DNA of 50,940 nt, taken from a bacterium. GTDB lineage: Bacteria > Patescibacteriota > Minisyncoccia > Phycocordibacterales > Phycocordibacteraceae. The first letter of the stretch is position 1, and each line of letters opens with the position of its first letter. A program made the translations under genes and the position numbers. The stretch covers positions 256,356-307,295 of the forward strand of contig JAHFML010000001.1 in assembly GCA_023269085.1 (NCBI GenBank). The letters run 5' to 3'. A model generated the notes under the pieces. That model ran no database searches, was not told the origin of the DNA, and saw only the letters and a list, made by a program, of their open reading frames with translations. This document shows, piece by piece, positions 6,162-25,710 of the stretch.

Positions 6162-8324
6162 ATGACAACCAGAAAACACGGGAGAAATCTGTTCCTCTCT
6201 TCACTTCTCGTTCTTGCGGGCATCGGCTTCATCGCACTCGGCGGCATCATCATCGCGGTCGCCGTCTCACCGGTCCCTGATATAAGCTCCTTCGCGTCAC
6301 GCCAAGTTGATCAATCAACGAAGATCTACGACCGAACCGGCCAAGTGCTCCTCTATGACTACAACCGCGACGCGAAGCGTGATGTTGTTGCCCTTGGTGA
6401 CATGTCGCCGAATATCATCCAGGCCTCTATCGCTATCGAAGATTCAAGTTTCTATGAACATGGCGGTATTCGGTTTACATCGATTATTCGTGCGATGATG
6501 GTCGACGCACTCGGTGGTGCGATCGCACAAGGCGGGTCGACAATCACCCAGCAGGTAGTGAAGAATACGCTCCTCACGAACGAGAAGAGTATTACGCGCA
6601 AAATCCATGAGTGGATGCTTGCAATCAAGCTTGAACAGATTTATTCGAAAGATCAGATTCTCGAAACATATCTGAACAATATCCCCTACGGCGGCACGCT
6701 CTATGGCGTCGAGGCGGCATCTGAGGCGTACTTCGGCGTCTCGGCGAAGGATCTCACGCTCCCCGAAGCGGCCTATCTCGCAGCGATGACACAAGCTCCT
6801 TCTTATTACTCACCGAACGGTACGCACCGCGCCTTACTTGATGCTCGGAAGAATCTCGTGCTCGAACGCATGCACACGCTCGGCTTTATCAAGGACGATG
6901 TATACGCCGCGGCAAAAGCTGAAAAGGTTCTTTTTGCTCCTGCAAGTCGGAATGCGATCATCGCGCCTCATTTCGTCTTTTACATTCTCGATCAATTGAA
7001 GACTTTCTACGGCCCACAAGCGCTCACCACCGGGCTCAAGGTGACTACCACGCTCGACGCGGATCTCCAGGTCCACGCCGAATCAACGCTCAATACTTAC
7101 GCGAAAGAGAATCAGAAGAATTTCAACGCATCGAATGACGCCCTCGTCGCTATCGACCCCCCGACGGGGCAAATCCTCGCCATGGTCGGCTCGCGAGATT
7201 TCTTCGACACGACTATTGATGGGCAATACAACGCTTCCCTCTCGCTCCGCCAACCAGGATCGACGATGAAGCCGTTTATCTATTCTCTCGCGCTCTCGCG
7301 CGGCTACACGCGCGATACGGTCGTCTTCGACGTTCCGACTCAATTCTCTACCTCTTGTCGTCCGCAAGAGGTTACGAATAGCACCCCTCCCTGTTATGCA
7401 CCCGGCAACTTCGACGGCACCTTCCGCGGACCGATGACTTTTGAAACAGCGCTCGCTCAATCAATCAATATTCCAGCTATCAAGACGCTCTATCTCGTCG
7501 GCGTGCAGAATGCCGTCGCCTTTGCAAAATCATTCGGACTCTCTTCGCTCGGCGATGCTTCGCAGTATGGTCTCACTATCGTGCTCGGCGGCGGCGAAGT
7601 GCGTCTGCTTGATCTCACGAACGCGTATGCCACCTTCGCGAATGACGGCGTCAAGAATGCGGCGACCGGTATCCTCGAGGTTGCCGATGCTCAAGGGAAC
7701 GTTCTTGCGCATTACACATCTGATCAATCCAGCGTCGTGCCGATGAATATCGCCCGAGACATGTCCGCAATGCTCTCTGACGCGCCCGCTCGCGTGCCTG
7801 AATATGATTTGAATTCTCCACTCTCTTTTGCTAATTATGATGTCGCCGTCAAGACTGGTACAACCGATGATACGCGCGACGCGTGGGTTGTCGGATACAG
7901 CCCTTCGATCGCTATCGGCGTCTGGGCCGGCAATAACGACAACTCACCGATGGTGAAGTCTATCGCCGGCTTCATCGCCGCGCCGATGTGGCATGAGGTC
8001 ATGGCCTATGCGCTCTCGAAATATCCGAAGACCTACTTCGGCGAACCGAATCAAATCTCAGCAACCATTCCTCCTATCCTGCAAGGCAACTGGCGAGTGC
8101 CCGATAGCCAAGGCGCTATTCTCCCACACTCTCTTCTCTATTGGACGGATAAAAATAATCCTCAAGGCTCCACTCCCCCCACGGCGATTCAAGACTCGCA
8201 ATATGCCTATTGGGAGTACGGAATTTCGGCATACTACAGCGCTCATCCAGAACTCTTCACGAATCCCCCGCTCATGGTCCCTCTCACTTTCACTGCAATG
8301 GTTTCGACAACAACGGTGCAATAA
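6162..8324 (+). CDS. class A penicillin-binding protein (PBP1A family; glycosyltransferase plus transpeptidase)
   Basis: N-terminal TM helix; GT51 motifs IAIEDSSFYEHGGI and GGSTITQQVVKN; transpeptidase STMK, and KTGTT. 720 aa. Confidence 0.9.
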   Translation: MTTRKHGRNLFLSSLLVLAGIGFIALGGIIIAVAVSPVPDISSFASRQVDQSTKIYDRTGQVLLYDYNRDAKRDVVALGDMSPNIIQASIAIEDSSFYEHGGIRFTSIIRAMMVDALGGAIAQGGSTITQQVVKNTLLTNEKSITRKIHEWMLAIKLEQIYSKDQILETYLNNIPYGGTLYGVEAASEAYFGVSAKDLTLPEAAYLAAMTQAPSYYSPNGTHRALLDARKNLVLERMHTLGFIKDDVYAAAKAEKVLFAPASRNAIIAPHFVFYILDQLKTFYGPQALTTGLKVTTTLDADLQVHAESTLNTYAKENQKNFNASNDALVAIDPPTGQILAMVGSRDFFDTTIDGQYNASLSLRQPGSTMKPFIYSLALSRGYTRDTVVFDVPTQFSTSCRPQEVTNSTPPCYAPGNFDGTFRGPMTFETALAQSINIPAIKTLYLVGVQNAVAFAKSFGLSSLGDASQYGLTIVLGGGEVRLLDLTNAYATFANDGVKNAATGILEVADAQGNVLAHYTSDQSSVVPMNIARDMSAMLSDAPARVPEYDLNSPLSFANYDVAVKTGTTDDTRDAWVVGYSPSIAIGVWAGNNDNSPMVKSIAGFIAAPMWHEVMAYALSKYPKTYFGEPNQISATIPPILQGNWRVPDSQGAILPHSLLYWTDKNNPQGSTPPTAIQDSQYAYWEYGISAYYSAHPELFTNPPLMVPLTFTAMVSTTTVQ

Positions 8325-9425
8325 TTATTGATTCATCGGGGAGACGAGATAGAGGAGTGAGGTATCGTTCATTCCGCGAATAATGAGTGGCCGGCCGATG
8401 CCTGCGGCCGTGAGCGAAATACTCTCTGCTTGCGTGAGGCCGAGCACCGCCGAGAGATAGCGATGATTGAATGAGAGCTCGAGCGCGCTCCCTGACACGC
8501 GCGCGGGCAATGTCTCGTTCGACTCGCCAATGTCGGCATTCTTCGCGAAGAATGCGAAGTTATTCTTTTTCGGATCGAAGCTGATGCGAATTTTCTGGAA
8601 TGTGTCGGAGAAGATTGTCGAACGCTTAAGCGCTGATTCAAAATCTTTCCGTAAAACGACCGCTTCGACGATAGACTCTTTCGGAATTATCTGTCGATAA
8701 TCGGGGTACACGGCGTTCGTCAGCCGCGAGACGAGCATACCCTTCTCACTCACGAAGGCGCATTGATGTTCGTCGAAGGAAACAATAATTTCGTCGTCGC
8801 TCAAGGCTTGGGCTATTTCGAGCGCGTTCTTCGCTGGGATGAGGAACTTCCCTTGCGTACCGCTGTTCGAGAGCGGTACTTTCTTCTCGGCGAGCCGGAA
8901 CGAGTCGGTCGCGACGGCCGTCAGCACACCGCCTTCGATAGCGAGATAAATGCTCGCGAGCTCCGGCCGTACCGTCGAGTTCGACGCACAAGAAGCAATG
9001 GCGGTAAAAAGATTCTTTAGGAGCACACCCGGGACAATAATGCGGTTCTTGGGGTTCTCGGGGAATGGTATCGAGGGGAAGTCGGCATACGGCACAGTCT
9101 TGATCGAGCTCTTGCCGGTACCGCTCGTTATTGTGACGATATCGCCGGTATGTTCGAGAGAAATCTTCCCTTCTCCAGTGAGCGAGCTCGCTATCTGTTG
9201 GAGAATGACTGCCGGTATAGCGACAACTCCTTCGCTCACCACCTCACCCGAGAGCTTCAGATCGATGCCTGTTTCGAGATTCGTCGCACGCAGTTTGATA
9301 CCATCATCGCCGGTGATGATAAGGATCGACGAGAGCGCCGCAAGCGTCGCACTCTTCCTCTCGGCGAAGCGTGCCGCGATATGCACCGTTTCAGAGAATT
9401 CTTTCTTTTCTATTTTGATATGCAT
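8325..9425 (-). CDS. dnaN: DNA polymerase III beta sliding clamp
   Basis: MHIKIEKKEFSETVHIAARFAERKS.., three-domain length (366 aa), directly downstream of dnaA. AAGGA lies 5 nt before ATG 9425. The stop abuts the PBP1A stop. Confidence 0.88.
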   Translation of the reverse strand: MHIKIEKKEFSETVHIAARFAERKSATLAALSSILIITGDDGIKLRATNLETGIDLKLSGEVVSEGVVAIPAVILQQIASSLTGEGKISLEHTGDIVTITSGTGKSSIKTVPYADFPSIPFPENPKNRIIVPGVLLKNLFTAIASCASNSTVRPELASIYLAIEGGVLTAVATDSFRLAEKKVPLSNSGTQGKFLIPAKNALEIAQALSDDEIIVSFDEHQCAFVSEKGMLVSRLTNAVYPDYRQIIPKESIVEAVVLRKDFESALKRSTIFSDTFQKIRISFDPKKNNFAFFAKNADIGESNETLPARVSGSALELSFNHRYLSAVLGLTQAESISLTAAGIGRPLIIRGMNDTSLLYLVSPMNQ

Positions 9426-9539
9426 ACGAATCCTTATTAGGGGTGGTGATACCGTGGATAAGTCAGAATAATGAGGCACTAGCACACTTTCTCCGCACTA
9501 CGCCCGCCCAAGAACCTGGTGATAACCATCTAGGAAACA

Positions 9540-10889
9540 TCATACAAGAAGCGTGCGGATATCTTGAATATCTTTTGCTAACTCGCTATCCCCAAGTACT
9601 TCACGCTTTATCTTCTCACAAGAGTGGATAACCGTCGTGTGGTCGCGACCGCCGAGTTTCGTGCCGATGGTCGGGTACGAGATATTGAAGTCTTCACGCA
9701 GGAGGTACATGATGATTTGCCGTGGCCGGACCACCTCTCTGCGACGCGTCTTCTCATAGATACTGTCTTCGTCGATGCCGTAGAATTCTGCGACCTTATC
9801 GACTATATTCTTCACCGACACATTCTTCTGCGGCCGCGTGAAGGATCTGAGCGAATTGCGTACCTCGGCGATATCCGGCGTACCGCCCTTCGCTTGCGTG
9901 TGGCAGACGATATTATTCACCATCCCTTCAATCTCGCGTATCGAGCCTGAAAGCGTCGTGGCTATATACTCGACGACCTCATTAGTGAGCATTATGCCAT
10001 GCAGAGCAGCCTTCTTCCGCACGATAGCCATGCGTGATTCTATGTCTGGTTCGCCAATGTCGATCGACATACCGCTCGCGAGCCGGCTCTTCAAGCGGTC
10101 GAAGATATCAGGGATAGCGATCGGCGGCCTATCCGACGAGAAGATAATCTGCTTGTTCGTATCATGAAGCGTATTGAAGAGGTGGAAGAGTTCCTCCTGC
10201 GTCTTATCTTTCTTCGAAAGGAACTGAATATCGTCCATGATAAGCAGATCATATTGCCGATATTTATCCTTGAAGCGATTTGCGGTACCGGCTTGAAGCG
10301 AATCGGTAAAATCTACAGTGAATTTTTCTGAGGTGAGATAGAAGACTTTCCGTCCTGGGTACTGCTTCTTGAATTGGTTCCCGATAGCTTGAATAAGATG
10401 GGTCTTCCCTCTCCCTGTCTCCCCATAGATGAAGAGCGGATTGTAGGTGATGCCGGGCCGCTCGAGCGCCGCTTGCGCGGCCGCATAGGCGAGATTATTG
10501 AAAGAGCCGATGACGAAGGTGTCGAAGGTATAGCGCGGGTTCAGATTATCGCTCTTGTTGATATAGAAATCTTCAAGCGGGAGCTCGAGCGCGCCGCGCG
10601 TATTCTTGTTCTCGCGCGGCGGCTTTCGATGGTCATCCTTCACGATGACATACTCGATATTGCGGAATTCATACGAGACTTCCCGTACTATCTTTAAGAG
10701 AAGCGTGTTGAACTTCTTGATATACCAATCTTTGAAGAATTGGCTTGGAACGGCGAGATAGACGACCCCGTCGTCTATCTTGGTTATGAAGCTGTTACGG
10801 AACCAGGTGTTGAAATTTGCGGGAGATATGGAGAGCTCGACTTGCGTGAGGATATGTTCCCAAAGCTCTTTCAAGTTTCCTTTATCCAT
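9540..10889 (-). CDS. dnaA: chromosomal replication initiator DnaA
   Basis: LWEHILTQVELSISPANFNTWF, Walker A GETGRGKTHL, Walker B LLIMDDIQF, C-terminal domain IV ..GGRDHTTVIHSCEKI. 449 aa. Confidence 0.95.
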   Translation of the reverse strand: MDKGNLKELWEHILTQVELSISPANFNTWFRNSFITKIDDGVVYLAVPSQFFKDWYIKKFNTLLLKIVREVSYEFRNIEYVIVKDDHRKPPRENKNTRGALELPLEDFYINKSDNLNPRYTFDTFVIGSFNNLAYAAAQAALERPGITYNPLFIYGETGRGKTHLIQAIGNQFKKQYPGRKVFYLTSEKFTVDFTDSLQAGTANRFKDKYRQYDLLIMDDIQFLSKKDKTQEELFHLFNTLHDTNKQIIFSSDRPPIAIPDIFDRLKSRLASGMSIDIGEPDIESRMAIVRKKAALHGIMLTNEVVEYIATTLSGSIREIEGMVNNIVCHTQAKGGTPDIAEVRNSLRSFTRPQKNVSVKNIVDKVAEFYGIDEDSIYEKTRRREVVRPRQIIMYLLREDFNISYPTIGTKLGGRDHTTVIHSCEKIKREVLGDSELAKDIQDIRTLLV

Positions 10890-18659: not shown

Positions 18660-19088
18660 TTATATCGGGCGGCGGGCGGTGATCGAGGCGCCTGGTCGGA
18701 CATCGAGCGACCATGCGAGCTCAGAGAGCTTCCCGCGCGTAAGCCGCGCGTTCCGTATCGGAGTCGGGGTTACATCGGGCTGGACGGGCGTTTCGTTCTT
18801 CACGACGGGCGCGGCCTGCTTCCAGATCAGCAGTTTAGCTCCGGCGGTGTAGTTGAATGCCGCCTCGAGTATCTCGATGAACGGCTTGCCGTTCACCCTG
18901 TAGAACGCGAGAGCGGCGCCGAGCCCGGCGACGGGGAGTGAGAAGAGGAGCGCGAAGAAGAAGCTGAAGTAGGAGAAGAAGATGACGCAGAGCCCGCCCG
19001 CGCCAGCGATATAGATGAATTGGCGCAGGGTCAAGGGCCCGATGATCTTGTCTTCGACCTCAATAAATTGCGGAACCTGGTACTCCAT
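18660..19088 (-). CDS. PrgI-family (VirB3-like) membrane protein
   Basis: MEYQVPQFIEVEDKIIGPLTLRQFIYIAGAGGLCVIFF.. is the characteristic PrgI-family N-terminus, followed by two TM helices. Confidence 0.75.
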   Translation of the reverse strand: MEYQVPQFIEVEDKIIGPLTLRQFIYIAGAGGLCVIFFSYFSFFFALLFSLPVAGLGAALAFYRVNGKPFIEILEAAFNYTAGAKLLIWKQAAPVVKNETPVQPDVTPTPIRNARLTRGKLSELAWSLDVRPGASITARRPI

Positions 19089-19095
19089 TCCTTCT

Positions 19096-19104
19096 AGTAT
19101 ATCA
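19096..19104 (-). promoter_or_regulatory. TGATATACT extended -10-like motif, 7 nt before ATG 19088 (T4SS-like operon promoter)
   Basis: Plus strand reads agtatatca. Lies inside the 3' end of the M50 protease gene. Confidence 0.45.
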
Positions 19105-19728
19105 GGAAGCGCCGGTGATGAGATTGAAAATCCAGAGGACAAGATTGAAGAAGGGGCCAGAGAGGAGCGTCGAGAAGACGATGAGGAAGAGGACGAGCGT
19201 AATGAATCCCATGTGCCGGAGCGTGGTCTCGAAGTGATTGAGTCGTTGTGTTAGGTGCCACGGGAGCGCCGATCGGAGCGCGACGAAGCCGTCGAGCGGC
19301 GGGAACGGGATGAGATTGAAGAGGCCAAGAAATAAATTCGTGAAGGCGATAAGCGCGGCGAGCGTGAGAGCCGAAGCAGGAAGATTCGTGCCAAAGCGGA
19401 TGATAAGGCCGAATATGAGCGCGAGGGTGAGATTGGTCGCGGCGCCCGCGAGCGCGACGATCGTCTCGCCCCAGCGCTTGTTCGTCAGGTTGTAGGGGTT
19501 ATAGGGCACCGGCTTCGCCCAGCCGAAGAGGAGCGACGAGCCCGAGAAGATGAGGAGCGCGGGGATAACAACAGAGCCCATGAGGTCGATGTGCGGGAGC
19601 GGGTTGACGGTGAGACGGCCAGCCAAGCGCGCGGTCGGGTCGCCGAGCGCGTCGGCGGCGTAGCCGTGCGCCACCTCGTGGGCGATGACCGAGAGGATGA
19701 GGATGATGAGAGAGAAAAAGGTGACCAT
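19102..19728 (-). CDS. site-2 protease family (peptidase M50) membrane metalloprotease
   Basis: HEVAHGYAA (HExxH) in TM1, ..NPLPHIDLMGS.., multiple TM segments, NLIPFPPLDG motif. 208 aa. Confidence 0.85.
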   Translation of the reverse strand: MVTFFSLIILILSVIAHEVAHGYAADALGDPTARLAGRLTVNPLPHIDLMGSVVIPALLIFSGSSLLFGWAKPVPYNPYNLTNKRWGETIVALAGAATNLTLALIFGLIIRFGTNLPASALTLAALIAFTNLFLGLFNLIPFPPLDGFVALRSALPWHLTQRLNHFETTLRHMGFITLVLFLIVFSTLLSGPFFNLVLWIFNLITGAS

Positions 19729-19757: not shown

Positions 19758-19766
19758 ACCACCACT

Positions 19767-20009
19767 ATGGCACGAGCATGTGAAGTTACCGGTAAGAGCA
19801 CGCAAGTCGGCGGGCGGTACAGCAACCGCGTCCGCGCGACGCAGTTCAACCCGACCGGTAAGGTGCGCCGCAAGGCGAATCTCCAGAAGCGCCGCATCTA
19901 TGTCCCCGAGATAGGTAAGACCGTCGTCGTCGACCTCTCGATGAAGGGCCTCAAAACTATCAAGAAGAACGGCGCCTTCGCGACCTTGAAGAAAGCCGGG
20001 GTTATTTAA
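19767..20009 (+). CDS. rpmB: 50S ribosomal protein L28
   Basis: MARACEVTGKSTQVGGRYSNRVRATQFNPTGKVRRKANLQKRRIYVPE.. 80 aa. Confidence 0.9.
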   Translation: MARACEVTGKSTQVGGRYSNRVRATQFNPTGKVRRKANLQKRRIYVPEIGKTVVVDLSMKGLKTIKKNGAFATLKKAGVI

Positions 20010-20028
20010 TCTGTGGTATAGTAGTCGT

Positions 20029-20208
20029 ATGACTACGACAATGGCGAATGAAATACGGTCGTTCGTGCGCGAGAGCGTACATGAAGAGGTTGTGGCGACC
20101 TTGAGAGAAATTCGCGCGTCGCTCGTTCCCTTTGTCTCAAAAAGCGAAGCGGCTGAAATAAAAAAACTCTACAAGAAGCCGTCTCGGGAAGTGGCGCGAA
20201 CACTCTGA
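20029..20208 (+). CDS. candidate 59-aa protein
   Basis: MTTTMANEIRSFVRESVHEEVVATLREIRASLVPFVSKSEAAEIKKLYKKPSREVARTL. TGGTATAGT sits 6 nt upstream of the ATG. Just below the track cutoff. Confidence 0.35.
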   Translation: MTTTMANEIRSFVRESVHEEVVATLREIRASLVPFVSKSEAAEIKKLYKKPSREVARTL

Positions 20209-20253
20209 ATGAATAATGGAAGAGTTAATTACTAAGATGTCATCTTAAAACGG

Positions 20254-20766
20254 CTATCTTAGTGTAAAGGTCGTGCCATTAGGAGTGTAGGTGCCGGCGG
20301 GAGTCGAGGAGGAGATGGTGAGAGAGGCCGCGTCATATGAGATGGTGGCGACGCCCGAGGCGACGGGCGTGATGAGGATAGTTTTGTCGAAGATTATGGG
20401 CGCACCATAGGGCCGGTCGCGCTCGCCTATATTGAGCACCTCGCCGACCTTGTAACGGTCGCGGATAAAGGGGAGGCCACCGACATTTTTTGCCGAGTCG
20501 CCGGTGAGCAGGATTGTGTCGAGCGAGCGTTGCCACATAGGGAGCGCGGCGCCGAGCGCGCGGAGAATACTCGCGTCGCTTCCCGTGTCGATGAGCAGGG
20601 TCGCACCCGAGGGCGCTTGCACGAGAGTCGCGCTCCCCTTCCCCACGGTGAAAACCGTCGCGGTAAGGAGGCGCGGCGTGAGGACGCTTCTATATATAGT
20701 GTAATTCGCGACGAGGAGAGCACAGAAGATGAGTGCATATCCCAGAGTCGGCATCGTTCGCGGCAT
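20254..20766 (-). CDS. membrane-anchored ComEC-type metallo-beta-lactamase-like domain with degenerate active site
   Basis: VFTVGKGSATLVQAPSGATLLIDTG and LDTILLTGDSAKNVGGL align by eye to the ComEC MBL motifs (fLdVGqGda..LiDtG; lilTHxHxDHxGG), but HxHxDH is replaced by GDSAKN. Confidence 0.6.
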   Translation of the reverse strand: MPRTMPTLGYALIFCALLVANYTIYRSVLTPRLLTATVFTVGKGSATLVQAPSGATLLIDTGSDASILRALGAALPMWQRSLDTILLTGDSAKNVGGLPFIRDRYKVGEVLNIGERDRPYGAPIIFDKTILITPVASGVATISYDAASLTISSSTPAGTYTPNGTTFTLR

Positions 20767-20767
20767 A

Positions 20768-20776
20768 TGCTACATT
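20768..20776 (+). promoter_or_regulatory. TGCTACATT extended -10-like motif, 8 nt before sod ATG 20785
   Basis: Direct reading. Overlaps the start of the divergent gene. Confidence 0.4.
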
Positions 20777-20784
20777 CTATATCT

Positions 20785-21372
20785 ATGACCTACCCGACAA
20801 AAACATTCAATCTTCCGGTGCTGACAGGGATTTCAGAGAAGCAGGTGCAGGTGCATCTCGCGCTCTATGCGGGCTATGTGAAGCAGGTGAATCTCATCAG
20901 GGAGAAGATTCAAGAATTGAAAGATGCGAGTGTCGATACATATGTCATTGCCGAGTTGCGTCGGCGCTTCGCTTTTGAGTTCGGCGGCATGCGGATGCAC
21001 GAATATTATTTCGAACAGTTTGAGCAAGGTCCGACCTCACTCATTGAAGGCGGCGCATTCGCCGATGCGATTGGCGAGAAATATGGCGAGCAGTCGCTCG
21101 AGGCGCATGTGCGCGAGGTCGCGGGCAGTCGGGGCATCGGCTGGGTCGTGGTGTATGCCGACCCGGTGGCAGGCACACTGCACACGGTCTTCGTGAACGA
21201 TCATGAGGTGGGTCAGCTCGCGGGCTTGCCTATCCTCCTCGCGCTCGATCTCTGGGAGCATGCCTACATGGTCGACTATGTGCCGGCCGAGAAGAAGAAT
21301 TATATCGACGCGTTTTTCGCGAATCTCAACTGGAGCGTGGTCGAGAAGCGCTTTGATGAAGCGATGCGGTAG
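20785..21372 (+). CDS. Fe/Mn-family superoxide dismutase-like protein
   Basis: ..VQVHLALYAGYVKQVN.., FEFGGMRMHEYYF, LALDLWEHAYMVDY, YIDAFFANLNWSVVEKRF (SOD C-terminal signature). The track ORF has a spurious N-terminal extension. Confidence 0.75.
   Translation: MTYPTKTFNLPVLTGISEKQVQVHLALYAGYVKQVNLIREKIQELKDASVDTYVIAELRRRFAFEFGGMRMHEYYFEQFEQGPTSLIEGGAFADAIGEKYGEQSLEAHVREVAGSRGIGWVVVYADPVAGTLHTVFVNDHEVGQLAGLPILLALDLWEHAYMVDYVPAEKKNYIDAFFANLNWSVVEKRFDEAMR
21313..21366 (+). repeat. 54-nt direct repeat, copy 1 (functional sod 3' end)
   Basis: tttttcgcgaatctcaactggagcgtggtcgagaagcgctttgatgaagcgatg matches 23668..23721 with 3 mismatches. Confidence 0.9.
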
Positions 21373-21440
21373 AGAGGAATAAAACAGGAAAACATGTACG
21401 CAAGGTGCCCTGACGCGTGTGTTATGATAACGTCACAATC

Positions 21441-22175
21441 ATGAAACTGAAGGTCAGCATCAGTTTTGTTGTTATTGCGGTATTTGCAATAGCGAGTTGG
21501 TTTGTCTGGCAACGGGGACAGGCACCCAATTCGATTTCTTCAGCAATTCCGACCACGTCACAAACAACAAGTACAGTTACGGATATTGATTTCTCCAAAC
21601 TCGAGAAAGACCGTCTCTATACCGAAGAAGAAGGATCGTACTCGAATTTGCCTGCTGTGGGGAAAAGGGTGTTGTGGGCGGCGCTCGCGCCGCAATGCAT
21701 CGCCAACCCTGATGGCAACCACTGTGGTGACTGGAAGCAGACGATAGTTAACAGCAGTATCGTTGCGGTTAATAATAGTATCCTCCTCATGGAGATTCCT
21801 TCTGGAAAAGGAAGTTCCGGTTATTTACTATACGACCTAAAACAGAAAAAACAGCTAGGTGATACCCTTTCGTATTTCGGCACAAAAATAAGAAACGACA
21901 TGTTCATTGTGTATATAAATAATATGCCCGATAAGACCCAAGAGCTTCTCTATTATCGACCGGGAATGACGGCGTTCGCCCCTGTTCAAGGCTCAGACAT
22001 ACCTTCTGCCGAATCGTATTGGTACTACGGTGGCATGGGTAGTTTGATCTCAGAGGCCATGTTTACAGGAAACGTGCTGAACATAGTTCTTTTTACCGAA
22101 TGGAAGGGTGAAATAGGTTTGACTGTGCCGAAGAAGATTAAGACAGCCATGTTTGATCTAAGTCTTTCCCAATAA
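21441..22175 (+). CDS. membrane-anchored hypothetical protein (cassette cargo)
   Basis: MKLKVSISFVVIAVFAIASWFVW TM anchor. Low-GC coding (about 42% by spot count). No motif recognised. Confidence 0.6.
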   Translation: MKLKVSISFVVIAVFAIASWFVWQRGQAPNSISSAIPTTSQTTSTVTDIDFSKLEKDRLYTEEEGSYSNLPAVGKRVLWAALAPQCIANPDGNHCGDWKQTIVNSSIVAVNNSILLMEIPSGKGSSGYLLYDLKQKKQLGDTLSYFGTKIRNDMFIVYINNMPDKTQELLYYRPGMTAFAPVQGSDIPSAESYWYYGGMGSLISEAMFTGNVLNIVLFTEWKGEIGLTVPKKIKTAMFDLSLSQ

Positions 22176-22177
22176 AA

Positions 22178-22201
22178 ACACCCGCGCCATGGCGCGGGTG
22201 T
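22178..22201. terminator. bidirectional hairpin between convergent cassette genes
   Basis: acacccgcgcc at ggcgcgggtgt, with an A-run on one side that gives a T-run for the minus-strand gene. Confidence 0.6.
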
Positions 22202-22230
22202 TGGACTCATTGAGAGTCATAAAGAACAAG

Positions 22231-23574
22231 TTACAGCTGGCAGTTGTCCCACAAGCAGACGTTTTTCATACCAGTTGCCGCTTCGAGCGGATCGGCGCCG
22301 TATTCGCCCTTCCAACCATACGGATCGACCACTTTGTAATCGTTGATTGAAGTACCAGACGAGCCAGACACACGTTTCAAGACTTCGAAGTGGAGGTGAG
22401 GACTTCCTTGTACGCCCGTGTCACCGCTCAAGCCAATCACCGCACCTTTCATCACTGTGTCACCTGAATACACAGAACGTGTATTGAGATGAAGGTACTG
22501 CGTTATATAACCATTTCCATGGTCAATACCCACAGCACCAAACGCATCGCAACTAGAAAGACCTTTAGGTATGCATCGCTGTCCGGCGAAGTTGACCACC
22601 GTTCCCGTGGCAGCTGCTTTCACTGGTGTGCTGTAGTAAGCTCGGTAATCGTATCCCGGGTGAGCTTCGTAATTCAAAGCAACACCAGCAACACAATTAC
22701 TTGATCCACTACCGACAGTGCCACTGTAAAGACTAGTGAGTAGCGTTGACCACGTCGCGTTGCCTTTCTTCGAATAACACGCTTGTGGTGCCGTGCTTGG
22801 GTAAGCTGACGTTGCGTCAAACTCCTCTCCGGTAAAAGCGACGATCACACCATCTTTGCCGCTGTATACCGCGTTCATGTGATAGTCCACAACGCTGACA
22901 AGTCCTTGCGGCGTGTACGCACCATATGTATACGCAATATTTCCCGTACCAGAACAGTTGGGCGTGCTACATTCAAGCGGAAAGCCCAGATTCGCCCCGT
23001 TGTAGGTGACCACAAGCATCGGCCGGTAGAACGGGATGCTGTAGTCAGAACTCCGGAATACGTTGAACTGGTTGTTGGTACCAGCAGGCAAGAATACGAA
23101 CCCGTCATTTACATAGGTACCATTCTTCCATCCGTTGTAGATGCTGGTGATGTTGAGGCCATACCACGAATTGGGCGTTGGTGCAGGCACCGTGCCCAGG
23201 CTGTACCCTTGCAACTGGGTATAGTAGTCCTGACTCGTCTCACTCCACGGAGTCGTGAGCAGGTAGAGCGGCATAGCCACCGGTGTAGAAGAATCGCCGC
23301 GCGGGTATGCATACAGCCACATCACTGCTGAGGTGGCTGTCTGAGGGAGACCAGAGAGGTCAAATTGTATGAACATACGGTGCTGATCGCCCCAACCGCC
23401 GACTTGGAGCTTACTGTCATCAACGGATGTCCTGTTGTAGCTCGACGAGAGCCACATATCTTTCCCTGGTGACGAGCCGGGTTGAAACAGCACCTGATCA
23501 GCAAATACACCAGTCGTCATCGCCAAGCAGCACAACAGCAACAACATTTGCAGTACCTTGAACAAGTTTCTCAC
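22231..23574 (-). CDS. secreted M23-family metallopeptidase with N-terminal DNRLRE-like domain
   Basis: Signal peptide ..LLLLCCLAMTTGVFA. N-terminal ..KLQVGGWGDQHRMFIQFDLSGLPQTATSAVMWLYAY..TTPWSE. M23 motifs HPGYDY and GSPHLHFEV. GTG start with AAGGAGA 6 nt upstream. Confidence 0.8.
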   Translation of the reverse strand: MRNLFKVLQMLLLLCCLAMTTGVFADQVLFQPGSSPGKDMWLSSSYNRTSVDDSKLQVGGWGDQHRMFIQFDLSGLPQTATSAVMWLYAYPRGDSSTPVAMPLYLLTTPWSETSQDYYTQLQGYSLGTVPAPTPNSWYGLNITSIYNGWKNGTYVNDGFVFLPAGTNNQFNVFRSSDYSIPFYRPMLVVTYNGANLGFPLECSTPNCSGTGNIAYTYGAYTPQGLVSVVDYHMNAVYSGKDGVIVAFTGEEFDATSAYPSTAPQACYSKKGNATWSTLLTSLYSGTVGSGSSNCVAGVALNYEAHPGYDYRAYYSTPVKAAATGTVVNFAGQRCIPKGLSSCDAFGAVGIDHGNGYITQYLHLNTRSVYSGDTVMKGAVIGLSGDTGVQGSPHLHFEVLKRVSGSSGTSINDYKVVDPYGWKGEYGADPLEAATGMKNVCLWDNCQL

Positions 23575-23633
23575 AGCACTTCTCCTTTATTGAAAGAACA
23601 AGTCGCGCACAATTGCGCGACTTAGTGAGCGTA

Positions 23634-25259
23634 TTAGGAGGACTGCGGTGATGCAACCATCATGTTCTTTTTCGCGAATCTCAACTGGAGCGTGGTCGAG
23701 AAGCGTTTTGATGCGGCGATGACGATGAGTGCCGCATAAGCGAGAAGGACGAGCCAGAAAGGAAAGGCAGGAAGAGTAAAAGCCGCGAACGGAAGCGTCG
23801 CGGCTTTTTGTGCGAGGATGAGCAGATATTCGTTCGTGAGGTATGCCGGTAAAGCGAGCAGGATGCCGAGCGCGTGGACGCTTGCGGTGAGCGCCGTCGA
23901 ACCGAAGAGCATGCCCGCGAATCCGGCGAGAGCCGAGAGCGCCATCGTGAGTGGGACCATCGGCGTCGCGAGCATATTCGCGGGAATAGCGACAAGGGAG
24001 AGATTGCCGGTGTCATAGAGGAGGAGCGGGAGCACCGCGACTTGTGCGGCGAGCGTCGTCGCGATGACGTCGCGCCAGAAACCAACGCGAGCTTCAACAG
24101 GTGCCTTTTTTGAGAGCGTTCCGTCCCGCCTTAGGCGGGACTGCACTTGGCAAATAACTCTCAAAAAAGGCGACCTGCGTAGCTCGCTCAATAAACGTTC
24201 GATAATCGGCGCGAGCCAGATAAGGCCGGCGGTCGCGGCGACCGAGAGGCCGAAGCCCGGGTCATAGGCGAGATAGAGCGGGTTCCCCGCAAGCATGACG
24301 AAGACGACCGCGAGGAGCGCGCGACCGGCGACATACGCGCGGCCCGTCGCGCGCGCATAGAGGGCGATGAAGGCCATGAGCATCGCGCGCAGGGCGGTGG
24401 CCGCGAAGCCCGCGATGCCGACGAAGAGCAGTATCGCAAGCGCGCCCGCCGCGCCGCGCCACTTGCGCGAGAGTCGGGTGAGCGCGAGCGCGGCCATCAC
24501 CCACTCGGCGACAACCATGATGTTGTAGCCCGAGAGGACGATGATTTGCACGAGGCCGCTCCGCGTGAATGCGGCTTGGAGGTCGCTCCCGAGGCCCGAC
24601 TTCCCGCCGATGACGACGCCGCCCGCGAGTGAGGCAACGGGCTCGGGCAACACATTTGCGAGGCCGTTCAAGAATGCGTGCTTCACCTGCGCGAGCGCGG
24701 CCGGGAGCGAGTACCACGGTGCGGGGCTCGTCACACGCATGAAAGCGAAGTTGAGCATGAAGCGCACGCCGTCACGCTGAAGATATTTGTCGTAGCGAAA
24801 GACGCGTCCATTGTCGTCCGCAAAAGGCTCGGGGAGTGCGAGGGTGCCGGAGATGCGCACCGCGTCGCCGACCGCGACGACAGTCGTGCGCGGTGCGACG
24901 ACGAGAAGAATCGTTGACTCCCCTCCTCGCGCGACGCGGACCATGACGCGCTGACTCGCATCGCGCAGATCCGGGTCGGCGACCACGATGCCGTCATAGG
25001 CAACGCGATGCTTCACGTCGCTCGCGAATGCGCTCGGCGGCGGCGTGTCGGCAACGAGCGCACGCACCATGCCGAGGGCGATGAACAAAAAGAAAACCGC
25101 GCCGCTCGTGTACACAAGGCGCGGCGCTCGCACTCTTGCGCCGACACAAAGTCCGGTGAGCAAAAGGGTGAACAAAATAACGGGCCACCCGAAACTAAAA
25201 ACCGACCGTAAAAGTATCCCGCCCGCGAATCCGCCAGAGAGCGCGATGAGCCACGACAT
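23634..25259 (-). CDS. comEC: ComEC/Rec2-family DNA internalisation channel (no MBL domain)
   Basis: MSWLIALSGGFAGGILL.., DUF4131-like N-terminus and competence-domain TM bundle (..QIIVLSGYNIMVV.., ..TTLAAQVAVLPLLLY..NMLATPMVP). Start chosen after the rnhA stop. Confidence 0.85.
   Translation of the reverse strand: MSWLIALSGGFAGGILLRSVFSFGWPVILFTLLLTGLCVGARVRAPRLVYTSGAVFFLFIALGMVRALVADTPPPSAFASDVKHRVAYDGIVVADPDLRDASQRVMVRVARGGESTILLVVAPRTTVVAVGDAVRISGTLALPEPFADDNGRVFRYDKYLQRDGVRFMLNFAFMRVTSPAPWYSLPAALAQVKHAFLNGLANVLPEPVASLAGGVVIGGKSGLGSDLQAAFTRSGLVQIIVLSGYNIMVVAEWVMAALALTRLSRKWRGAAGALAILLFVGIAGFAATALRAMLMAFIALYARATGRAYVAGRALLAVVFVMLAGNPLYLAYDPGFGLSVAATAGLIWLAPIIERLLSELRRSPFLRVICQVQSRLRRDGTLSKKAPVEARVGFWRDVIATTLAAQVAVLPLLLYDTGNLSLVAIPANMLATPMVPLTMALSALAGFAGMLFGSTALTASVHALGILLALPAYLTNEYLLILAQKAATLPFAAFTLPAFPFWLVLLAYAALIVIAASKRFSTTLQLRFAKKNMMVASPQSS
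23668..23721 (+). repeat. 54-nt direct repeat, copy 2 (displaced sod 3' end, antisense to the comEC 3' end)
   Basis: In frame it reads FFANLNWSVVEKRFDAAMTMSAA*. On the opposite strand it encodes the comEC residues ..ASKRFSTTLQLRFAKK... Confidence 0.9.
24101..24175. repeat. nested palindromic element inside the comEC ORF (reading frame stays open)
   Basis: ccttttttgagag (24104-24116) / ctctcaaaaaagg (24158-24170), flanked by ggtg/cgacc, with an inner hairpin gtcccgcc tta ggcgggac. Encodes the basic segment RRSPFLRVICQVQSRLRRDGTLSKKAPVE. Confidence 0.7.
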
Positions 25260-25290
25260 AGGGGTATCGTAGCAGAGATTACCGATGAAA

Positions 25291-25710
25291 CTATTTCGCC
25301 CCCCTATCCATCGCTTCGTTCGCAAGGGCGTCGGCGTCGGCGTTCAGCGCGCGCGGGATGTGGGTGAAGGTTGTCGAGGCGAAGCGTGCGGCGAGCGGAG
25401 CGAGCCGCGCGTATTGCGCCTTCATCATGGGGTGCTTCACTTTATATACGCCGTTCGCCTGCTTCACGACGAGCTCGCTGTCCATCTTCACCGCGATAGT
25501 TGTTGCGCTGATTTTATTACCGACGATTTTTGCAACCGTTTCGAGCGCGAGAATCACCGCTTCGTATTCGGCGAAGTTGTTGGTGTTGGTCCCGAGGAAT
25601 TGCGACACGCTCGCGACGGGGCTCCCTGCTTCGTCGCGAATCATCGCGCCCGCTCCCGCGGGCCCCGGGTTCCCTCTCGATCCCCCGTCGGCGTGAATGG
25701 TGAAGTGCAT
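25291..25710 (-). CDS. rnhA: ribonuclease HI
   Basis: MHFTIHADGGSRGNPGPAGAGAMI.., NNFAEYEAVILAL, MDSELVVKQ, ALNADADALAN (DEDD residues in order). Confidence 0.85.
   Translation of the reverse strand: MHFTIHADGGSRGNPGPAGAGAMIRDEAGSPVASVSQFLGTNTNNFAEYEAVILALETVAKIVGNKISATTIAVKMDSELVVKQANGVYKVKHPMMKAQYARLAPLAARFASTTFTHIPRALNADADALANEAMDRGAK

Follow-up and report, generated by a model that had tools for sequence, protein, structure and literature searches.

An M23 peptidase cassette between two copies of the sod-comEC overlap in a groundwater Patescibacterium

How can a cassette be placed between two convergent genes that share their 3' ends without depriving either gene of its end? This question is raised by a stretch of 50,940 nt (contig JAHFML010000001.1 of assembly GCA_023269085.1, positions 256,356 to 307,295) from an uncultured groundwater Patescibacterium, whose homologues are named Paceibacteria, Kaiserbacteria or Minisyncoccota. 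The two genes are sod, encoding an Fe/Mn superoxide dismutase (SOD), and comEC, encoding the DNA-uptake channel. Here, the whole stretch is called the window (W), coordinates are window positions, and L-numbers refer to loci in related genomes. A two-gene accessory module now lies inside the sod-comEC overlap, and it consists of an M23 peptidase gene with a 5' hairpin, a convergent partner gene and a probable common terminator (Table 1). The overlapped segment stands once on each side of the cassette, so each of the two host genes has a private 3' end.

The duplicated segment was detected as a direct repeat. The two copies (21313-21366 and 23668-23721) are 54 nt long and identical at 51 of 54 positions (94%), with an exact match over the first 38 nt, and all three mismatches fall within the last 16 nt. 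This confirms the 54-nt repeat with three mismatches that was placed around the cassette in a preliminary description made from the sequence letters alone. The repeat occurs just twice in the window, against zero expected from 100 shuffles, and no further copy of the 38-nt core, of the M23 gene or of its partner was found elsewhere in the window. Both copies can be read in both genes. The window sod ends in ..FFANLNWSVVEKRFDEAMR*, and translation of copy 2 in the sod frame gives FFANLNWSVVEKRFDAAMTMSAA*; on the minus strand, comEC ends in ..ASKRFSTTLQLRFAKKNMMVASPQSS*, and copy 1 read antisense (open reading frame (ORF) 21300..21512) ends in ..SSKRFSTTLQLRFAKNASI*, the same ending as in ComEC homologues. 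The stops of the copy-2 and copy-1 readings are the relic stops of Table 1, and all four readings had been given correctly in the preliminary description. The mismatches represent comEC-side changes away from the ComEC consensus (SS to AS) together with one change that is synonymous in both frames.

The ancestral state of this junction was reconstructed from relatives. A scan with the ComEC alignment, retaining one genome per species, gave 80 loci; sod is convergent to comEC in 73 of them, and a tail-to-tail overlap of 47-97 nt is present in 69 of these 73. The most frequent lengths among these 69 overlaps are 70 nt (n = 35), 85 nt (n = 17) and 79 nt (n = 8). An original overlap of about 70 nt had been proposed for the window; the overlap itself is borne out by the relatives, while the proposed length is not, as in-silico removal of 21313-23667 restores a 199-aa SOD ending in ..TMSAA*, a ComEC ending in ..FAKNASI* and an overlap of 85 nt, which is the second most common class among relatives. 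At the uninterrupted junctions of relatives the two genes do overlap, and the repeat, of which the window has two copies, is part of the sod coding sequence and not a common intergenic element. The same picture was obtained from the proteins. SOD C-termini comprise a short class with 3-4 residues after ..KRF (76/119) and a long class with nine residues and the ending ..(K/Q)(M/T/I)SAA* (31/119). Among the ComEC homologues, 101 of 119 end in the antisense-of-sod tail (..SKRFSTTLQLRFAKKASI; A(S/Q)(I/T/M/R)) and 94 of 119 have SKR(F/L)S near the end, and the ComEC consensus tail ..SSKRFSTTLQLRFAKKASI* is the exact antisense translation of the conserved SOD ..NYIDAFFANLNWSVVEKRF. In the ancestral state of this clade of Paceibacteria, sod lay antisense just 3' of the Competence part of comEC with an overlap of 70-85 nt, and the last ~20-28 ComEC residues therefore correspond to the antisense of the conserved SOD C-terminal helix. 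The ..TMSAA* reading of copy 2 is weaker evidence and adds little alone, because the conserved ComEC helix on the opposite strand (..YAALIVIA..) almost dictates those residues. Two more distant relatives without overlap, L070 and L073, lack a cassette; their ComEC tails are unrelated, and an ordinary terminator separates the two genes. A tandem-duplication intermediate, with the overlap doubled and no cargo, was found at none of the 80 loci.

Both gene ends were altered in the window. The ComEC C-terminus was changed from ..FAK(N/K)ASI* to ..FAKKNMMVASPQSS*, and the left arm of the cassette provides the last 11 comEC codons and the stop (23634-23636). The window sod tail, ..EKRFDEAMR*, has five residues after KRF, a length that occurs in none of the 119 homologues. 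This atypical tail indicates that the sod end was rewritten as well and that its native form was not regenerated; the earlier proposal that the last ComEC residues were replaced while the sod end was regenerated thus holds for comEC and fails for sod. Each gene runs a few codons into cassette DNA, sod as ..AM followed by R* and comEC as ..AKK followed by NMMVASPQSS*. The G+C (GC) content of the inserted DNA is 0.49, measured against an earlier estimate of about 42%, and lies 9-11 points below that of the flanks (0.58-0.61).

Insertions at the same junction were identified in three other genomes. In L083, comEC, the M23 gene (71% identical), the partner gene (34%) and sod (72%) have the order and orientation of the window, and this locus has its own direct repeat of 51 nt (94% identical). 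In L094, comEC is followed by an M23 gene, genes for two other membrane-anchored proteins and sod; the CBM96 half of this M23 protein is close to that of the window and its catalytic half is different. The L094 repeat of 64 nt (77% identical) spans the whole overlap, and the native comEC stop is kept. L083 and L094 have a common left junction, in which the comEC stop TAA is followed by TCCACA and then by an alignable arm. L004 carries different cargo at this junction (7548-9945), namely a transmembrane (TM) protein and an N-terminal-M23 protein, both co-directional with comEC, and its repeat is 64 nt long and 70% identical. By its flanking genes (RecJ 71%, L28 88%), L004 is the nearest genome to the window in the collection. 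Its comEC tail copy has drifted (..SSKRFRATPQLRAARRVSI*), and its TM protein is weakly similar to the PsbP-like proteins of L094 (E 2e-4). According to ComEC and SOD identity, the four insertion genomes are not mutual nearest relatives, and the overlap is intact in closer relatives of each of them.

The module is also found at other loci, the possibility of which had been raised in the preliminary description. It is present in at least seven neighbourhoods, which include, besides the sod-comEC junction, a site between a 184-aa gene and the RNase H gene upstream of comEC (L085-L087), a site between the GlyRS/664-aa genes and recO (L084), a site adjoining the NusA gene (L106/L107), a site between a HisRS-like gene and YbeY-FtsA-FtsZ (L108), and a site between the Nramp and ABC ATPase genes (L110/L111). 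In L085, as well as in L086 and L087, 2.7 kb with the M23 and partner genes stand between perfect 21-nt direct repeats, CATCGGGACGGGTTTTGTTTT (2075-2095 and 4769-4789 in L085), whose sequence corresponds to the 3' half and T-run of the terminator of the upstream gene. About 500 nt of palindrome-rich DNA separate the left repeat of L085 from its M23 gene. The apparent repeats of L096 (1-140 and 2870-3009) were rejected as candidates, since they are reverse-complementary contig ends and probably an assembly palindrome. In L088 (2342-2506) and L105 (2522-2767), pieces of an M23 C-terminus with ~45% identity to residues 348-446 were found between the partner gene and the gene for a PsbP-like TM protein, and they resemble leftovers of cargo turnover within the module.

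Several observations point to horizontal movement. The identity of M23 between the window and L085 is 68%, compared with 55% for L28, 53% for the M50 peptidase, 46% for RecJ and 35% for ComEC. The GC content of the module ranges from 0.37 to 0.49, and that of the host flanks from 0.38 to 0.63. The nucleotide identity of L083 and L094 follows a mosaic pattern, with 80-84% in the 5' half of M23, 59-71% in comEC and no alignable sequence beyond. A viral or phage origin was considered and rejected: the M23 alignment revealed no relative on the viral contigs of IMG/VR, its single weak match there being to CBM96 only, and the PHROGs match concerns the generic M23 domain only. The cassette was judged to be an accessory, horizontally circulating islet. 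Because the same module occurs at the same junction in L083 and L094 and also at other loci, the insertion is probably not a recent event private to the window genome.

The cassette contains only two ORFs, M23 and partner, and the earlier description of this cargo as a TM-anchored protein and a secreted M23 peptidase is supported by the protein searches. The M23 protein has a signal-peptide-like N-terminus and matches Pfam Peptidase_M23 (3.4e-21; PF01551, 75.7 bits, cut-off 28.7), CBM96 (3.3e-10) and NCBIfam DNRLRE_dom (2.9e-23). Its zinc ligands are intact (H305xxxD309 and H393xH395, in the motifs HPGYD and HLH) and invariant in 16 aligned sequences. In PDB profile searches, the best solved relative was the zoocin A endopeptidase (5kvp, 2e-22), followed by TagE and ShyA, both Vibrio endopeptidases, and lysostaphin. 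On account of the invariant ligands and of these nearest solved relatives, zoocin A and lysostaphin, the enzyme is probably active, and it is predicted to be an exported peptidoglycan hydrolase with a lytic or remodelling function.

Between a TGnTAnnAT-like -10 element and the ribosome-binding site (RBS) of M23, a hairpin of 8 bp accompanied by the motif TTGTTCTTTC was found in eight genomes. It is located at 23602-23621 in the window, at 434-453 in L083 and at 3300-3319 in L094, and also occurs in L088, L110, L085, L105 and L084 (80 nt upstream of M23). Compensatory changes are present in four of the eight pairs and 98.4% of cells are paired, a value reached by none of 500 shuffles. The hairpin is a possible regulatory element or attenuator in the 5' untranslated region of this peptidase family; in the window it lies 12 nt past the new comEC stop, and it may terminate comEC as well. 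Among known RNA families, only sub-threshold terminator-like Rfam matches were obtained within 20000-25500, and these fall at the 22177..22202 palindrome.

The family of the partner is small and evolves fast, and only 46 of its clusters were found in 1.84 billion representatives. The partner gene is convergent to M23 in W, L083, L084, L085, L105, L107 and L108. The window protein has a TM helix, and no sequence match was found for the family in Pfam, NCBIfam, PHROGs or the PDB profile, apart from one weak PsbP-like match in one member in the per-member Pfam scan. The alignment-based AlphaFold2 model has a predicted local distance difference test (pLDDT) value of 87 and shows a membrane-anchored beta-rich domain, whereas the single-sequence model (pLDDT 41) is useless. 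The fold search in the PDB gave no match with E<=0.001 and only weak, partial propeller-like similarities with a TM-score of <=0.3. The gene is transcribed, as an RNA contig from a metatranscriptome of the same sample covers 21473-21582. Upstream of it, a 16-codon ORF (21395-21445) starts 23 nt past the sod stop and has an ATGA overlap with the partner start codon, and in L083 the partner gene begins ~15 nt past the sod stop; this spacing suggests co-transcription of the partner gene with sod. The partner may be a cognate membrane-anchored protector or regulator of M23.

The likeness of the repeat copies was compared over 48 nt in the sod sense. Copies within one genome agree at 45/48 positions in the window, 45/48 in L083, 40/48 in L094 and 33/48 in L004, and copies from different genomes agree at 31-42/48 (65-88%; window versus L083, 73-77%). 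Copies within a genome are thus more alike than copies between genomes with the same insertion, which is the mark of concerted evolution. For example, a serine codon is AGC in both window copies and TCG in both L083 copies. The comEC-side copy of L083 resembles the sod-side copy of the same genome and not the comEC-side copy of L094, and, given the left junction common to these two loci, the L083 pattern appears to be the signature of gene conversion after insertion. The window copies would be 94% alike through gene conversion or recent re-acquisition; gene conversion is the likely explanation, with a young insertion as the alternative.

Different explanations were considered for this architecture. 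The window comes from a metagenome contig, and its 38-nt core is beyond k=31 graphs, so that a chimeric join at a short repeat, in assembly or binning, had to be examined. Three DNA runs were used as k=31 Logan contigs, which cannot resolve the core. The M23 protein is present on identical contigs from two independent runs (SRR14366756 and SRR14366760, with the organism at ~50x), and one contig equals window 21321-23697 exactly, ending 30 nt into each repeat core because the graph is k=31. Contig depth in one run was 53.4 for the cassette and 54.1 and 48.6-53 for the flanks, and in the second about 47-51 throughout; in the third, low-coverage run, a contig (23661-23902) extends from the cassette through the entire core into comEC. 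As the depth is 1:1 with the flanks and the right junction is spanned, the cassette is integrated, in essentially every genome copy, and the depth of these k=31 contigs shows neither a deficit nor an excess of the kind that an empty site or an extra circle would cause. The same architecture was also assembled independently in other studies (L083, L094 and L004), and the chance of an artefact is negligible. It is nearly as hard to credit that the cassette-bearing, non-overlapping state is ancestral and that the overlap arose by deletion of the cassette between the repeats. Recombination between the repeats would indeed yield exactly the overlapped junction, and the insertion genomes are scattered among overlap genomes; but both repeats are sod coding sequence, and a second copy would be pointless inside comEC before an overlap existed, the overlap prevails in 69 of the 73 loci, the site is held by two unrelated cassettes, and the features of L070 and L073 described above also speak against this order of events. 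The cassette could otherwise be a remnant or satellite of a site-specific integrative element, similar to a cis-mobilizable element (CIME), in which the repeats are attL and attR, an integrase encoded elsewhere targets the sod 3' end, and the element brings a sod end with it. The exact 38-nt core in direct repeats at both ends, the choice of a conserved gene's 3' end as the target, for which a substitute end is supplied, the GC content below that of the flanks, and the use of the same junction by several genomes are all in line with such an element. However, neither cassette ORF is an integrase or any other recombinase, no inverted repeat was found at the cassette ends, and no conserved core was found among the members: window and L083 are 73-77% alike, the L094 and L004 repeats, 70-77% alike, have no exact core, and the L085 repeat is an unrelated terminator half. 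The repeat edges vary too (FF..AM for the window, AN..stop for L083 and the entire overlap for both L094 and L004). These features argue against a dedicated att site and against a transposase, contig depth does not point to empty sites or circles, and we consider a site-specific element improbable.

A young, independent insertion in the window lineage is a more serious alternative, although still a rather unlikely one. Here the cassette, together with the short sod tail of a donor, would have recombined in the conserved 3' end of sod without conversion, and Campbell-type or homology-facilitated illegitimate recombination after transformation could have been the route. The 38 exact nucleotides followed by three clustered mismatches give the sharp homology edges expected of such an event; the stretch that ends sod past copy 1 (..AMR*, GAATAA..ACATG) is loosely similar to the tail and spacer of L083 and not to the continuation of copy 2, the GC content of the cassette is below that of the flanks, and the nearest ComEC relatives of the window have an intact tail. 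On the other hand, the L083 copies are also 94% alike even though their left junction is common with L094 (77-83%), and homogenisation is needed at least there; the nearest known cassette is only 71% (M23) and 34% (partner) identical, so no recent donor is in sight, and the mismatches, being comEC-side departures from the ComEC consensus, fit drift of a relaxed copy. The explanation that we prefer as a whole, and hold to be probable though far from assured, is that the module in the former overlap was acquired horizontally by recombination, that the repeat copies were kept or made alike, and that the cargo consists of an exported hydrolase and its partner. The module would circulate horizontally among Paceibacteria and would be acquired by recombination that involves no dedicated recombinase; most likely, DNA uptake would come first and the near-invariant 3' sequence of sod would serve as the anchor. 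Only products that duplicate the overlap would leave both sod and comEC functional; the copies would then remain alike, or become so again, through gene conversion or recent re-acquisition, and the 38-nt exact core would permit precise excision of the RecA type, restoring the ancestral junction. Some points weigh against this explanation. Among the relatives compared, no genome >90% identical to this organism has the site empty. The alignment of the window left arm with the L083 and L094 arms is loose and requires a deletion of ~13 nt, which would have removed the native comEC stop; common descent of the window insertion with theirs is plausible. The clustering of mismatches fits a recombination or conversion boundary, yet it cannot separate conversion from a young event. 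Apart from L085, no flanking repeats >=12 nt were found at the other module sites, so the movement of the module is not generally marked by duplication. Strong constraint, and not transfer, could account for part of the high M23 identity in distant hosts. The role of the partner as protector or regulator is deduced solely from conserved adjacency (convergent, in at least seven genomes), and the protein shows no detectable similarity to known immunity proteins. A broader proposal, which at present seems doubtful, is that M23 and partner form a recombinase-less mobile islet: it would move by DNA uptake and annealing to conserved host sequence, leaving duplications of 21 nt (terminator) or 51-85 nt (the sod/comEC overlap, a preferred landing pad because it is doubly constrained and hardly varies between species), and conversion would keep the insertion reversible.

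The cassette resembles several known systems in part. Bacteriolytic M23 exoenzyme loci such as zooA/zif and lss/lif have an adjacent self-protection gene of the FemABX type. Like the zoocin A and lysostaphin loci, the cassette combines a secreted M23 zinc endopeptidase, recognised here by its sequence, and a targeting domain with a tightly linked second gene on the opposite strand, and the locus is patchy in distribution and deviant in composition. In contrast to zooA/zif and lss/lif, its partner is not a cytoplasmic FemABX-type transferase but a membrane-anchored beta-rich protein of ~240 aa, and its targeting domain is CBM96/DNRLRE instead of SH3b. The HxxxD and HxH motifs are kept, unlike in the degenerate LytM factors EnvC and NlpD. 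Integrative elements in gene 3' ends carry a substitute gene end and have attL/attR direct repeats, and integrase-less CIME derivatives exist. As in those elements, foreign DNA is found between direct repeats of the 3' end of a conserved gene, the target is intact and precise excision would be possible; the differences are that the cassette has neither an integrase nor a common core, that the repeats measure 21, 51, 54 and 64 nt, and that the repeat serves a second, convergent gene too because the target is a gene overlap. As in the target-site duplications of transposons and casposons, a duplicated target brackets foreign DNA and both interrupted frames run into the insert. Transposase, Cas1 and terminal inverted repeats are lacking, however, and to our knowledge the duplications, of 21-64 nt, are far longer and more variable than in any transposase family. 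Convergent gene overlaps in bacteria usually comprise a few bases, and a long one is often an annotation error. The sod and comEC genes are, like other convergent overlapping pairs, two real genes on opposite strands with a common 3' sequence, but their overlap measures 70-85 nt and both stop positions are kept across at least 69 genomes; it has been undone naturally by insertions (W, L083, L094 and L004) and by a fusion (L076).

The significance of this locus lies mainly in the overlap and in the way it was opened. The sod gene is the only widespread oxidative-stress gene of these ultra-small bacteria (PMC8672522), and a long convergent overlap, conserved in a large groundwater clade, ties it to the DNA-uptake channel. 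In Patescibacteria papers that name both sod and ComEC, the two are listed separately and their arrangement is undescribed. The overlap was opened at least two times by cell-wall-hydrolase cassettes, with the overlapped segment duplicated each time. The ComEC tails of L004 and L094 have drifted and that of the window has been replaced, which shows that the sequence of this tail is dispensable; short duplicated coding segments can evolve in concert. The patchy, probably horizontally exchanged M23 protein, a predicted hydrolase, is a candidate for attack on hosts or competitors or for envelope remodelling in episymbiotic Patescibacteria. Conservation of a long overlap and its resolution by duplication are unusual but not unprecedented, and a new kind of molecular system is not required.

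Table 1. Coordinates of the genes, repeats and relics at the sod-comEC junction of the window
Feature	Position	Strand	Remark
Metallo-beta-lactamase (MBL)-like ORF	20254..20766	-	resembles the metallo-beta-lactamase (C-terminal) part of ComEC, encoded separately
sod, Fe/Mn superoxide dismutase, 195 aa	20785..21372	+	Pfam Sod_Fe_C 2.2e-17, Sod_Fe_N; repeat copy 1 within the last 60 nt
Relic of the ancestral comEC stop (..FAKNASI*)	21300..21302	-	antisense to sod codons N-Y-I
Direct repeat copy 1, sod side	21313..21366	.	functional 3' end of sod
Partner gene, 244 aa, N-terminal TM anchor, beta-rich extracytoplasmic domain	21441..22175	+	
GC-rich palindrome, 11-bp stem, between the convergent cassette genes	22177..22202	.	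likely bidirectional terminator
Secreted CBM96 (DNRLRE) + M23 peptidoglycan endopeptidase, 447 aa, GTG start	22231..23574	-	Pfam; activity predicted
M23 leader / cassette left arm: RBS, TTGTTCTTTC motif, 8-bp hairpin 23602-23621	23575..23667	-	
Direct repeat copy 2, comEC side	23668..23721	.	minus strand codes ComEC ..AASKRFSTTLQLRFAKK
Ancestral long-class sod stop, relic position	23737..23739	+	now inside the comEC coding sequence
comEC, DUF4131 + Competence, 541 aa	23634..25259	-	Pfam Competence 5.7e-41, DUF4131 1.9e-12

Some further features of the two host genes and their surroundings were recorded. For SOD, 3107 homologues were found, the closest of which are 80% identical and come from metagenome-assembled genomes of Paceibacteria and Kaiserbacteria, and the exact-protein look-up gave no record of the window SOD as an identical protein in other assemblies. 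The organisation of ComEC in the clade was seen from the window and from loci L007, L017, L020, L029 and L076. ComEC is split, sod standing in antisense orientation between its Competence part and an MBL-like ORF of its own, and in relatives without sod the Competence and MBL-like parts are adjacent. In L076, sod was deleted and the ComEC parts were fused in frame via a relic of antisense sod (..SSKRFSATSQLRLAKNASISARS..), and L020 retains a ..SSKRFS relic. By tblastn, homologues of the MBL-like ORF were located just past sod in most related loci, and the counterpart in L085 matches Pfam Lactamase_B; the window ORF has no Pfam or NCBIfam match and no HxHxDH motif (it reads ..LLTGDSAKNVGG..). 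A near-perfect palindrome of ~100 nt (24087-24187), single-copy in the window, lies in frame in a ComEC loop on the minus strand (..RRSPFLRVICQVQSRLRRDGTLSKKAPVEARV..), with a minimum free energy of -62 kcal/mol (z = -8.4). The lengths of ComEC homologues diverge exactly at this site (499 versus 525-545 aa), and the palindrome recalls in-frame palindromic elements such as the Rickettsia palindromic elements (RPEs). The flank 18660-19728 plus 19767-20009 is syntenic with L083 and comprises L28 and M50 peptidase genes followed by PrgI-like and TraC-like genes, the latter two belonging to the type IV secretion cluster described for Patescibacteria (PMC12102498). RNA contigs were found on 19000-19215 and 19762-20176.

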